64,000 nucleotides of DNA, from the IMG/VR virus record IMGVR_UViG_3300003937_000325; one strand, 5' to 3'. Of the stretch, positions 34,759-39,895 are shown in pieces; positions within the stretch are counted from its first letter, which is position 1, and each line of letters opens with the position of its first letter. This DNA is from a virus. Lineage: Duplodnaviria; Caudoviricetes. The position numbers were made by a program, and so were the translations under genes. Below the pieces are notes generated by a model. The model was not told the origin of the DNA and did no database searches. It saw nothing but the letters and a program-made list of their open reading frames with translations.

Positions 34759-35969
34759 AGTAACTCACCTTTAGAAGTTACTTTAAATTGTTTTTTACCA
34801 GATTCAAAAATTAAATTTCCTTTATTAGTTTTACCTAAAAATTTAATATTAGTATTTTCTTTAAGTATGAACTCAGAAGTTAATTCCTGTTCAATACTCT
34901 CTGATAATCTTTTTATTTCTTTTTTAACCGATATAGTGTTAACTTTCTCAGCTAAGAATTTTTTAATTTTTTTAGATTCTGTAATCTTTTTTTCACCATC
35001 GGTAACTACAAAGTACTTTTCTAATACCTTATCAACTTTTGACTCACCAAATATTTCATCAACCATAGATTTCATAGAATCACCTTCAGCCATTTCACCT
35101 TCAGGTTCTTCCATATCCATATCCATATCTAAGTCTAAATCTAAATCTAATTCATCATCACCAGATTCAACATCAATATCAACTTCACCTTCCATATCAT
35201 AATCAGTTTCATCTTCTTCAAAATTAGCTAAAATATCTTCTTTATCTTCTTCAGAAAGTTTGTCTAATTCAACTGCAGATATAATTGAATTTAAAACGTA
35301 CTTAATGTCTTCAGAGGATAATCCTTGATTTTTATCGTAAGTTCTTAGTTTCTGTCCTATTTTACCTGTTAATTTTTGAATTACCTTGAATGAGCTCTCT
35401 TCATCTTCAACCTCAACCTCAACTTCTTCTTCTTCAGTATCATCTAAATCTAAATCCATATCTAAATCATCAACACTTTCTTCAGAATCCATATCCATAT
35501 CAACATCCATATCAACATCCATATCTAAATCCGCTTCAGGTTCCATTGATGGTTCATCAACATCGATATCAACGTCAACTTTAGGTTCTGGTGTTTTTAA
35601 AACAAATTTCTTTTGTTCACCTATAATGTTAACTCCTTCAGTATTTTCATGTATTCTATTAAGTTCACCAGCAATAAGATTCACTTTTTTCATTGCTTGA
35701 GAAAATGATTTGTAATGTTTACGGTTCTGCATTGGTTCGTTATAATCAAGTTCTGATTCACTTATACCAACTTTTACTACGTATCCTGTTTTTTCTTTTA
35801 CAATTCCGTAGTACTTTCCATCGGCCATCTGAATTGAATAGTCGGCTTTGGAGTTTTTGTTTTCACTTAAAGTAGTGGGTTTTGAACCATAATTAGAAAT
35901 CTCAAGAATTCTACTAATTTGTTCTTGACCTTCTAATTTCTCACTACCTAGAGGTTTTAAATCTGCCAT
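34755..35969 (-). CDS. Acidic low-complexity protein (DxD-rich), probable prohead-associated
   Basis: 404 aa with DLDMDVDMD tracts. Confidence 0.7.
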   Translation of the reverse strand: MADLKPLGSEKLEGQEQISRILEISNYGSKPTTLSENKNSKADYSIQMADGKYYGIVKEKTGYVVKVGISESELDYNEPMQNRKHYKSFSQAMKKVNLIAGELNRIHENTEGVNIIGEQKKFVLKTPEPKVDVDIDVDEPSMEPEADLDMDVDMDVDMDMDSEESVDDLDMDLDLDDTEEEEVEVEVEDEESSFKVIQKLTGKIGQKLRTYDKNQGLSSEDIKYVLNSIISAVELDKLSEEDKEDILANFEEDETDYDMEGEVDIDVESGDDELDLDLDLDMDMDMEEPEGEMAEGDSMKSMVDEIFGESKVDKVLEKYFVVTDGEKKITESKKIKKFLAEKVNTISVKKEIKRLSESIEQELTSEFILKENTNIKFLGKTNKGNLIFESGKKQFKVTSKGELL

Positions 35970-36230: not shown

Positions 36231-36974
36231 TTATTTTTGCTCAGATAAAGAAAGACGATTATCAATAACATCATTCTGAAAATCGAATAGTTTCTGTATA
36301 TATCCATTCCTTCTTAGATATTTAAAAACTAAATTCTCATAAGAGTATTCACCCTCTTTTTCTAAACCACAACCTCTATATTTTTTTAACTTATCTTTTA
36401 CTTTTTGTATTTTCTCTAAAGAAGTCTCTAAATCATCATCCGATTCTTCAACATCATCAATCACTAAATCTATTATGTCTTCCCACTGCTCAACCTTATC
36501 AGTAATAATTTTTTTATTGATATTAACCTCCTCTTTAGTAGGTTCAACTAACCATTCATTAAATAATACTGAATACACCCCTGTTGATATGTGTGGTTCA
36601 TTTATATCTTGAACATATAGTTCAACTTCATAACCTTTAACGGTTATATCGTGTGTGGAGTTAAATAATGTTTTTTTTAGTTTAAATAAGTCCTTATAAA
36701 GTTCCTTTTCATTTCCTGACTCATTAAAGTCATACATAATGTGTAAATCTATATCTGAAAATTCGGACCAATTGTAATTAGATAGTGACCCGGTCATTGT
36801 TATATCTTGTATAAAAATGTCGTAATCTAAAAACTCAATGAATTTATTAGCGATTTCGATTAACTGTAAACGAATTTCTTCTTTCATCACGGCATTTGTA
36901 GGGTCATCAGGATTATCCCAAATAGTGGGATTTAACTCATCTTTTACATCAAAACTAGAAATTATATTATCCAT
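36231..36974 (-). CDS. Pol-beta superfamily nucleotidyltransferase
   Basis: TMTGSLSNYNWSEFSDIDLH (GS-x10-DxD) and VELYVQD. Confidence 0.8.
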   Translation of the reverse strand: MDNIISSFDVKDELNPTIWDNPDDPTNAVMKEEIRLQLIEIANKFIEFLDYDIFIQDITMTGSLSNYNWSEFSDIDLHIMYDFNESGNEKELYKDLFKLKKTLFNSTHDITVKGYEVELYVQDINEPHISTGVYSVLFNEWLVEPTKEEVNINKKIITDKVEQWEDIIDLVIDDVEESDDDLETSLEKIQKVKDKLKKYRGCGLEKEGEYSYENLVFKYLRRNGYIQKLFDFQNDVIDNRLSLSEQK

Positions 36975-36995: not shown

Positions 36996-37244
36996 TTACT
37001 TTGTTAATTTTTTATATTTGTATTTCCTTCCTATCTCTTTATTAAAGAATCCTCCTTGAGATTCTGCCATTCTAAATTTAGTATACATTGAGTGTGGTAC
37101 TTTTTCGTATTCGTACTCCATACCATTTTTAAATGTTACCACTAACTTCTCATTAGAGGTATTATAAACTGTCTTTTTTAAGTTAGATGAGTCAATTTCA
37201 TTTATGATTAATTTCCCTTCTATTTTTTCATTTTTAATTGCCAT
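36996..37244 (-). CDS. KTSC-domain protein
   Basis: DSSNL...YN....L.V.FKNG.EYEY..VP...Y..F..AESQG.FFN..I. Confidence 0.88.
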   Translation of the reverse strand: MAIKNEKIEGKLIINEIDSSNLKKTVYNTSNEKLVVTFKNGMEYEYEKVPHSMYTKFRMAESQGGFFNKEIGRKYKYKKLTK

Positions 37245-37287
37245 AATATATTTTTTTAATAAGTATAGGAATAATATATAAATAAAA

Positions 37288-37307
37288 AACCCTCCGTATG
37301 GAGGGTT
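37288..37307. terminator. Rho-independent terminator
   Basis: AACCCTCC-GTAT-GGAGGGTT. Confidence 0.75.
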
Positions 37308-37312
37308 CTTTA

Positions 37313-37666
37313 TTACTTTCTTAAGTTTTTAATTTTATCCCTAAGTTTAATCGATTCTTCAAAATTCTCTTCAGTAATAGAAATACCTAATTTTTCTTTT
37401 AAGTCTTTTATTTCTTTTCCATTTTTTTCCAAGTTTTTAATTTTGTCTCTAAGTTCAACCGCTAATTCAAAATTTTCTTCTGATATAGCATTATCTAATT
37501 CTTTTTTTAATTGATTCGTATTATTATCGGTAGTACTCGTAGTCGATTTACTATCGTAATAAAAAATGTATCCATTAGGTCCTACTTTATAGTAAGTTGG
37601 TTTTATTTCATTAAAGAATGAGTCAAACTCATCGAATAGTTCATTAAATTTTCTTTTTCCAAACAT
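37313..37666 (-). CDS. Small protein with two UvrB/UvrC (UVR) coiled-coil motifs
   Basis: LDNAISEENFELAVELRDKI and LGISITEENFEESIKLRDKI. The likely start is ATG 37666 rather than TTG 37711. Confidence 0.8.
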   Translation of the reverse strand: MFGKRKFNELFDEFDSFFNEIKPTYYKVGPNGYIFYYDSKSTTSTTDNNTNQLKKELDNAISEENFELAVELRDKIKNLEKNGKEIKDLKEKLGISITEENFEESIKLRDKIKNLRK

Positions 37667-37714
37667 ATTATTAGTTTTTTTTATTTTATTGTTTATCTTT
37701 GTACTTAACAAATG

Positions 37715-37729
37715 GCAAAAAACGTACCA
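37715..37729 (-). promoter_or_regulatory. Sigma54 (RpoN) -24/-12 promoter for the UVR-domain gene
   Basis: Minus strand TGGTACG-TTTT-TTGC versus consensus TGGCACG-N4-TTGC: exact spacing, one mismatch. Confidence 0.7.
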
Positions 37730-37773
37730 TAAGTTATATAATGTCCATATGACTCATCATTATAGAGGAATAG

Positions 37774-37817
37774 TGACATAATGACAGTTAACCTAAATTT
37801 AATATGACAAAATGTCA
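37774..37817. promoter_or_regulatory. Two TGACA-N3-TG(A/T)CA boxes, candidate activator binding sites
   Basis: TGACATAATGACA at 37774-37786 and perfect inverted repeat TGACAAAATGTCA at 37805-37817, 31 bp apart. Confidence 0.6.
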
Positions 37818-37822
37818 AGTAG

Positions 37823-37852
37823 TTGATAAACGAACAATTTTTGTTATATTAG
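37823..37852 (+). promoter_or_regulatory. Bacteroidota sigma70-like promoter for clpC (variant)
   Basis: TTG-N19-TATATTAG, ending 24 nt before the ATG. Confidence 0.45.
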
Positions 37853-37876
37853 TAATGATAAATTAATTAATATAAT

Positions 37877-39895
37877 ATGATAGAAGAAGTAGACCCAAAC
37901 GAAAAGGGTGGTCGTAACCCTAAAGAAGTGAGTAACTCTAAAACACCTGTGTTAGATAATTTTTCTCGTGACCTAATTAAACATGCTGAACAAGGTAAAC
38001 TTGACCCTGTTGTTGGTCGTGAGAGAGAAATTAATCGTATCGCACAAATCCTTTCCCGTAGAAAGAAAAACAACCCAATTATCATTGGTGAACCAGGAGC
38101 GGGTAAAACTGCCATAGTAGAAGGTTTAGCTATGAAAATTTTTGAAGGTGATTGTCCTCAAAACTTATGTGATAAAAGAATAGTATCATTAGATATGACA
38201 TCTATTGTCGCTGGAACTAAATATCGTGGACAATTTGAAGAAAGATTAAAAGTTATCTTAGATGAGTTATATGAAAACCCTGAAATAATTGTCTTCATTG
38301 ATGAGATACACACTATTATTGGTGCAGGTAACTCTTCAGGTTCGTTAGATGCGTCTAATATATTTAAACCGGCATTAGCAAGGGGTGAACTCCAATGTAT
38401 TGGGGCAACAACTCTTGATGAGTATCGAGAGAATATTGAAAAGGATGGTGCACTTGAGCGTCGTTTTCAGAAAGTAGTAGTTGACGGTGCAACACCTAAA
38501 GAGACATTAATAATTTTACAGAATTTAAAATCAAGGTATGAATTTCATCATAAAGTAAGTTATAGTGATGAATCATTAGAGGCTTGTGTGACCTTAGCAG
38601 ATAGATATATTACTGATAGAGAATTTCCTGATAAGGCAATTGATATTATGGATGAGGTAGGTGCCAGTGCGCAAATCAATGTTAAATTACCTGAAGTTAT
38701 TGAAAAGTTGAAGGAACAAGCATCATCTATAAAAGATGAGAAAATACAAGTCGTGAAATCTCAACAATATGAGAAAGCAGCAGAACTTAGGGATAAGGAG
38801 AAAAAGATTCTAAAGAAATTAGATTCGGAAAAGGTTAAGTTTGAAAAACAAAAGGATGTTACACGTAAACCAATAACTGAAGATATGGTTTATAATGTAG
38901 TTGCAACTATGACTAAAATTCCAGTTAGTCGTTTAAACAATGATGAAAAAGAATCTTTACTAAATCTTGAAGATAATCTCAATACCACAGTAATTGGTCA
39001 AGAATTGGCGGTTCAAAAGATTTCAAAGGCGATACGTAGAAATCGTGTAGGAATTAAAGACCCAAATAGACCAATAGGTTCTTTTATCTTCTTAGGTTCT
39101 ACCGGTATAGGTAAAACTCATTTAGCTAAACAATTAGCTAAAGAAATTTTTGGAGATGAGGATGCGTTAATAAGAATGGATATGTCTGAATATCAAGAAA
39201 AATATACGATGTCTAGACTTATTGGTTCACCTCCCGGATATGTCGGTCATGACCAAGGAGGACAATTAACTGAAGCAGTTAAGAATAAACCATATTCCGT
39301 AGTTTTGTTTGATGAAATTGAAAAGGCTAATAAAGATATATTCTCACTACTCTTACAAATGATGGATGATGGTCACCTTACAGATAGTTTCGGTCGTAAA
39401 ATAAATTTCAAAAATTGTTTGATAATTATGACTTCTAACTTAGGAGTTAAAAAACTTCAAGATTTCGGTACAGGTGTTGGTTTTGAAACAACAAACAGAA
39501 TGTCGAATAATGAAGAAATGAAAAAAGCTCTCCTTCAAAAAGAGTTAAAAAATCATTTTACTCCTGAATTTTTAAATCGTGTTGACGAAGTGGTGGTATT
39601 TAACCCACTAAAAGAAAAAGAAGTTTCACAAATAGTTGAGATTGAATTACTAAAATTAACAACACGTTTAGAAGATATGAACTACAATATCACTATTAGT
39701 GATACGGTTAAAGAATTTATTTCAAATGTTGGATTTGATGAAAAATATGGGGCACGTCCGATTAAAAGAGCAATTCAAGAAAAGATTGAAGACTTAATAT
39801 CTGAAGAAGTTTTACGTGGTACAATCACTGAAGACAAACCATTTGTTCTTGATATGAAAGATGAAGAAGAACTTATTGTAAAGAAAGGGAATTAA
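37877..39895 (+). CDS. clpC: ClpC-type AAA+ unfoldase lacking the N-terminal Clp repeat domain
   Basis: Two ATPase domains ([14 protein letters not shown]; [14 protein letters not shown]), a short UVR-type M-domain (YEKAAELRD) and a GVGF ClpP-docking loop. Confidence 0.9.

Follow-up and report, generated by a model that had tools for sequence, protein, structure and literature searches.

A probable phage-borne copy of the sigma-54 protein-stress promoter of Bacteroidota, with helically phased upstream sites

What would an enhancer-type sigma-54 promoter do in a phage genome, and which protein would read it? The question is raised by a 210-bp gap between two divergent genes, i.e. a minus-strand gene for a double-UVR protein and a plus-strand clpC, in a window of 64,000 nt (the whole stretch of DNA analysed here). 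The window is part of a 199-kb virus record that is around 66 % complete and harbours portal- and terminase-like genes, and its sequence turns up in marine metatranscriptomes. In our reading, the interval 37666–37877 is probably (roughly 75 %) a phage-borne copy of the sigma-54 promoter with which Bacteroidota respond to protein stress, opened by a host AAA+ activator.

The putative output of this promoter is the double-UVR gene (37313–37666, minus strand), which encodes 117 aa with two stretches matching Pfam PF02151 (E 1e-14). Its Met1 is unchanged across 63 homologues, and an alternative upstream TTG start (37711) was discarded, since the predicted mRNA does not include it and the ATG never varies. 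In the protein model, an aromatic helix at the N-terminus is followed by a beta hairpin and by two UVR helical hairpins; a Foldseek search with it gave no match at E≤0.001, the weak matches being to ClpC middle domains only, and a relationship of the N-terminus to an Hsp20 arm was not supported (hhalign probability 3.6 %). The neighbouring clpC (37877–39895, plus strand) matches Pfam AAA, AAA_2, UVR and D2-small without a Clp_N match, i.e. it has a UVR-type middle domain and no N-domain. Because the UVR protein is set among chaperones and beside a ClpC without adaptor-binding domain, it might be an adaptor or regulator acting on ClpC, a suggestion from context and general knowledge of ClpC middle domains to which we give somewhat less than even odds. 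A complex predicted for the UVR protein and the middle domain of ClpC scored 0.06 (mark, 0.32), which counts neither for nor against it. The incomplete 199-kb record yielded no Hsp20 or DnaK gene. An intrinsic-terminator-like hairpin (37281–37314, both strands; two sites versus 0.1 in shuffles) would end the UVR transcript, and beyond it lie a KTSC-domain gene (36996–37244) and a nucleotidyltransferase-like gene (36231–36974).

The phage looks adapted to Bacteroidota, having Bacteroidota-type promoters and almost no Shine-Dalgarno sites. Using the housekeeping promoter consensus of this phylum (PMC7366714), TTG-N17-21-TAnnTTTG was found before six genes of the 199-kb record versus 0.96 expected, and Shine-Dalgarno sites occur at only 3/215 phage genes. 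Among GenBank phages there is no UVR homologue and no close ClpC, so that no cultured relative points to the host.

The first-pass annotation had placed a sigma-54 core on the minus strand about 50 nt upstream of the UVR gene, and this holds: TGGTACG-N4-TTGC lies at 37729–37715 (minus strand), with GG at -25/-24 in TGGYAYR, TTGC at -12 and exact spacing, and ends 48 nt ahead of the UVR ATG at 37666. It is the sole match within the window, against 0.02 expected from shuffles, and two other intergenic TGGTAC sites in the genome proved to be reverse reads of housekeeping -7 elements. From sigma-54 spacing, UVR transcription is predicted to start at 37703 (minus strand). The UVR gene is found alone on its own RNA contig in three metatranscriptome studies; the promoter-side ends of these contigs (37689, 37689 and 37696), which give neither strand nor start, fall 7–14 nt inside the predicted start, a weak hint, and the other end is near the terminator hairpin.

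The two boxes reported 31 bp apart, centred 77 and 108 nt upstream of the start, were likewise recovered, i.e. a palindromic distal box TGACA-N3-TGTCA at 37805–37817 (centre -108, gap of 75 nt to the TGG) and a middle box TGWCA-N3-TGWCA at 37774–37786 (centre -77, gap 44). They are joined by a proximal, degenerate box with two mismatches at 37742–37754, centred at around -45 and 12 nt from the TGG, so that the three boxes are spaced 32 and 31 bp. The box pattern gives three strand matches in the window versus 0.26 expected, and strict boxes occur at two places only in the 199-kb record. At the gap-12 offset, the six loci nearest to the window have boxes with one to four mismatches, whereas most of the other relatives, and most hosts, have their main box there; the middle box is kept at gap 43–44 in the closest relatives. 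The proximal box is a decayed one in the lineage of the window.

Conservation in related phages had been set beforehand as a check on the motifs, and it speaks clearly for them. Among 148 clpC upstream regions, reduced to 86 at <90 % identity, those with a UVR neighbour carry a strict box in 54/54 cases and TGGYAY in 50/54, and box plus TGGYAY are present in the one region with a dnaK neighbour and in four of the five with hsp20, the fifth (L079) having degenerate versions. By contrast, all 25 regions with another neighbour gene (a class that leaves out L347, a UVR locus, and L079 with its degenerate sites) lack a box within one mismatch and TGGYAY, yet have a housekeeping-type clpC promoter. 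On the ClpC tree, which is midpoint-rooted, boxes and partner gene were lost jointly six times or more in different parts, in some cases inside UVR clades with good support, and UVR, Hsp20 and DnaK swapped several times with the element retained. Related phages share ancestry, so that counts overstate independence. From these losses and swaps it follows that the element belongs to the divergent heat-shock gene, and, as far as the tree tells, the divergent slot acts as an exchangeable heat-shock cassette. Loci with hsp20 or dnaK in the place of UVR behind the same promoter (L036, L055, L061, L079 and L094) lie on several branches.

The element is retained across UVR proteins down to around 35–40 % identity, with spacers that diverge and indels of whole helical turns. 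In the -12 region of the relatives, TT at -16/-15 is conserved, G at -13 is found in 33/46 and C at -12 in 7/46; host promoters show a similar looseness at -12.

Sigma-54 enhancers are usually pictured as distant sites, 80–150 bp upstream, which act by looping. The boxes found here show another geometry. Box-to-TGG gaps cluster at 12, 23, 33, 43–44, 53–54, 64 and 74–75 nt, and the phase concentration peaks at a period of 10.3–10.5 (n=112), with R=0.88 (0.85 without the 12-nt class), which is not a P value, as kin share spacing, though different rungs recur in separate clades. The proposed sigma-54-type promoter with helically phased dyad sites is thus conserved across relatives, with a ladder period of around 10.4. 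The nearest box lies at gap 11–13 or 23 in 36/45 UVR loci, and at 11–13 or 21–24 in 52/53 host chaperone matches from a scan limited to gaps 9–26. Therefore, the earlier placement of activator sites 80–150 bp upstream is right for the -77 and -108 sites of the window and wrong for the family, in which that picture is the exception and the nearest box is mostly centred at around -45, beside the -24 element. With its first rung at -45, the ladder speaks for a way of activating sigma-54 that differs in geometry from the distant loop of the textbooks.

On the opposite side of the gap, clpC has a Bacteroidota housekeeping promoter (37823–37852, plus strand) with TTG at 37823–37825, a 19-nt spacer and a -7 element TAnnTTAG at 37845–37852; the relatives mostly have TAnnTTTG and retain this promoter when the boxes are absent. 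As annotated earlier, the distal box adjoins the -33 element, its end lying 5 nt before the TTG. In the relatives this distance is mostly 3–5 nt, or 14–16 nt in one large clade, and is independent of the spacing on the UVR side, which suggests that selection acts on the geometry of distal box and clpC -33 while the sign of any effect is not given by it. The claim that the element is shared with clpC survives only in part: the boxes are gone with the heat-shock partner (25/25) while clpC and its housekeeping promoter stay, but the near-fixed distal spacing would fit some effect, and we rate an influence of a distally bound dimer on the divergent clpC promoter as just under an even chance.

A possible second housekeeping-type -7 element, TAnnTTTG at 37694–37701 (plus strand), faces the sigma-54 promoter and adjoins its predicted start. 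It is kept in around 20 loci, chiefly in the subclade of the window and in a few other branches. With predicted starts a few bases apart, polymerases at this element and at the sigma-54 promoter could exclude each other; alternatively, a 5' UTR may have been conserved here. Of the RNA contigs, one that covers clpC starts at 37719, which would fit a plus-strand promoter at 37694–37701, a weak hint as the contig gives neither strand nor start.

The element is not confined to clpC loci. A gene-blind scan of viral contigs for box plus core returned 121 sites, with gap peaks at 12–13 and 22–23, and the genes downstream included Hsp20 (22), DnaK (15), UVR (10) and GroEL (2). Box plus core were also present in all five larger relatives, before UVR or dnaK among other genes, and the reversed control gave no match. 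At viral groEL genes (L241:7236–8873 and L312), the box lies at gap 13 and is closely preceded, on its own strand, by a housekeeping -7 element.

Boxes also occur in a second conserved non-coding element outside the window (L001:9555–9695, i.e. G000:C1:133555–133695), where two of them lie 55 bp apart with no sigma-54 core and are interleaved with DnaA-box-like 9-mers (GTTRATAAC), including a perfect TTATCCACA in L568. This element is found in 14 viral contigs and in the complete relatives G008 and G009. The phages with it encode no DnaA C-domain, the box-plus-DnaA-like pattern is absent from the 61 host genomes scanned, and the element is possibly an origin using host DnaA.

Where does the promoter come from? 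Sigma-54 (SM4) promoters have been start-mapped at groES, dnaK, grpE, htpG, lon and clpB in Flavobacterium psychrophilum (Guerin et al. 2021, PMC9723704), with the activator left open among three candidates, and a computational survey predicts a class-wide sigma-54 chaperone regulon of Bacteroidota (PMC12316311). A scan of bacterial genomes for the box with the -24/-12 core, asked for beforehand, bore out the expected position ahead of chaperone genes: 50 of the 70 Bacteroidota matches lie before dnaK (33), groES (9), htpG (6) or hsp20 (2), versus 2/51 matches outside Bacteroidota. The exact box-plus-core pattern was found in 16/151 genomes of the phylum (control, 1); exact matches are few because host sites are degenerate, and a host box within two mismatches sits on the ladder in 9/16 dnaK and 5/11 groES sigma-54 promoters. 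The phage boxes are nearer the consensus and more often in arrays than those of the hosts. At groES, the sigma-54-type site (13 genomes without HrcA) and CIRCE (17 genomes with HrcA) are mutually exclusive in these 30 genomes of the GTDB phylum Bacteroidota (host groES promoters L506–L535). Judged by its motifs, the phage cis-element is the same as the host chaperone promoter element.

If the promoter is the host's, so is probably the activator. The statement that the window encodes none extends to the 199-kb record, in which we found neither rpoN nor an enhancer-binding protein, the sole PF00158 match being ClpC itself. Neither a PF04552 match nor an activator homologue was found in five relatives, of which three are ≥99 % complete, and viral contigs hold generic activators only, at ≤48 % identity. 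Together with the presence of the same element before Bacteroidota chaperone genes, this upholds the proposed tie of the phage genes to a host sigma-54 proteostasis circuit.

A candidate for the host activator is a protein with an AAA+ domain and a Fis-type HTH but no sensor domain. It is the sole HTH-bearing activator in two small flavobacterial genomes with the box, is matched in 19/19 genomes without HrcA and 7/22 with HrcA (some matches covering the AAA part only), and is found in 36/41 Bacteroidia genomes; in four genomes it is located 2–2.5 kb upstream of groES. Across 27 genomes the recognition helix hardly varies, and between the AAA+ domain and the HTH lie an additional conserved helix and a linker that is long and variable; the AlphaFold model is poor (mean pLDDT 59). 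Based on co-occurrence, we think it somewhat more probable than otherwise that this protein, conserved across the class Bacteroidia, is the activator. Flavobacterial genomes (L414–L418) harbour a REC-AAA activator of around 387 aa without a DNA-binding domain.

We propose that host sigma-54 polymerase would bind 37729–37715 and stay there as a closed complex until the host protein-stress activator is released and its dimers load on the two strong sites and the weak one, which lie on one helix face (-108, -77 and -45). Assembled on these sites, the activator would open the promoter, giving a short monocistronic mRNA for the double-UVR protein. Its contact with sigma-54 would run along the face of the DNA or need a short bend, and not a long loop of the IHF type; short-range contact is favoured because the sites are phased and usually begin right beside the -24 element, and the variable linker may let a dimer at -45 reach sigma-54 without a long loop. 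In related phages with hsp20, dnaK or groEL behind the same element, viral chaperone output would rise on host protein damage, and the distal dimer might also tune the divergent clpC promoter. Of the parts of this mechanism, dependence of the UVR promoter on RpoN is very likely, activation by the boxes, as opposed to repression, is likely, and stress as the trigger fairly so. A wider version, in which this widespread phage lineage runs a chaperone/protease mini-regulon off a host heat-shock activator, one phased array serving both the sigma-54 and the clpC promoters without a classical loop and ClpC and UVR being timed to folding stress in the host, seems doubtful.

Several observations sit uneasily with this mechanism: 12 nt is an uncommonly short distance between an activator site and the -24 element, C at -12 is poorly conserved, the host box is often missing, and boxes are found in the second element too, where there is no sigma-54 core. 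The main rival takes the boxes as operators at which a repressor of the host, or an architectural protein resembling Fis, blocks or bends DNA beside the promoter while the activator is in solution or bound elsewhere. That the commonest site adjoins the -24 element (gap 12), that boxes without core lie among DnaA-box-like repeats, and that the HTH-less REC-AAA activator of flavobacteria could act from solution would all suit such a protein. Against it, sites up to 75 nt away keep one helical face, which fits contact better than blocking, the strongest sites of the window are the distant ones, and the dyad type matches the conserved activator with a Fis-type HTH, so we hold this rival to be unlikely.

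The closeness of the phage boxes to the consensus and their arrays would also be expected if they mainly formed a sink that draws the activator off host chaperone genes, and the anchoring of the distal box 3–5 or 14–16 nt from the clpC -33 if they mainly controlled clpC, UVR transcription being secondary in both cases. This is quite improbable, as the boxes disappear with the heat-shock partner while clpC stays, precede phage hsp20 and dnaK in their own right, and are strict at just the two places in the 199-kb record. A phage-encoded factor could be hidden in the missing third of the record or among the many phage genes without assigned function; given that the element is the host's own, that the five relatives lack PF04552 matches and activator homologues and that the viral activators are generic, we think this very improbable. 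The decay of the proximal box in the lineage of the window might even suggest that the element arose by chance or is a remnant that came in with a captured host gene, an idea of almost negligible probability that is contradicted by retention of the element to around 35–40 % UVR identity, by the whole-turn indels and by the joint loss with the partner gene. An activated host-type promoter is thus the reading we retain.

Sigma-54 control of Bacteroidota chaperones and a sigma-54-like promoter in the Pseudomonas phage YuA are already published. The F. psychrophilum SM4 promoters (PMC9723704) and the predicted regulon (PMC12316311) share the -24/-12 core and the gene class with our element, which differs in lying in a phage and in having two or three near-consensus upstream boxes; the available parts of both papers, text and supplements, name neither a binding site nor the activator. 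The YuA promoter P015 (10.1101/2023.10.13.562163) is likewise a host-type promoter used by a phage, but the YuA text gives no activator sites or stress regulon, while our element is met again in many phages ahead of several families of chaperones. HrcA/CIRCE also controls groES, in other members of the same GTDB phylum, but is a repressor with a different motif. A parallel in layout is E. coli norV/NorR (PMC2831303), where a sigma-54 promoter is preceded by three dyad sites, each of them required for activation by NorR, and one orientation of the phage box fits the NorR core GT-N7-AC, the commonest phage form being TGACA-N3-TGTCA. NorR has a GAF sensor and IHF looping, whereas here the sites start beside -24 and the candidate activator has no N-terminal sensor. 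Membership of a NorR regulon was rejected, the targets being chaperones, not NO-detoxification genes, and the candidate lacking a GAF domain. With the group 4 activators PspF and HrpRS, which have no regulatory domain and are controlled in trans (PMC7175178), the candidate shares the sensor-less AAA+ and HTH architecture; unlike them, it has the extra conserved helix and the long variable linker before the HTH.

The literature covered, largely outside subscription journals, holds no account of the box, of the helical ladder or of phage use for several chaperone families. Large aquatic Bacteroidota phages place protein-repair genes behind a copy of the host sigma-54 stress promoter and its 13-base sites, and a stress regulator of the host probably switches these genes on. 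Our data suggest that whole chaperone sets (Hsp20, DnaK, GroEL and UVR) are plugged into an activator-dependent stress circuit of the host, for which one sigma-54-like promoter was the sole precedent found. In the class Bacteroidia, whose members abound in oceans, lakes and guts, chaperones are under sigma-54 control, and neither the activator nor its site is named in any paper that we found; the phage promoters provide near-perfect, evolution-tested copies of the site together with spacing rules, i.e. baits and reporters for finding the regulator.

As regards the record itself, the window and the genome record differ at five positions near 34869–34962. TATTTAT is found ≤100 nt upstream of 66/215 genes versus 17 expected, which is consistent with a phage late promoter.
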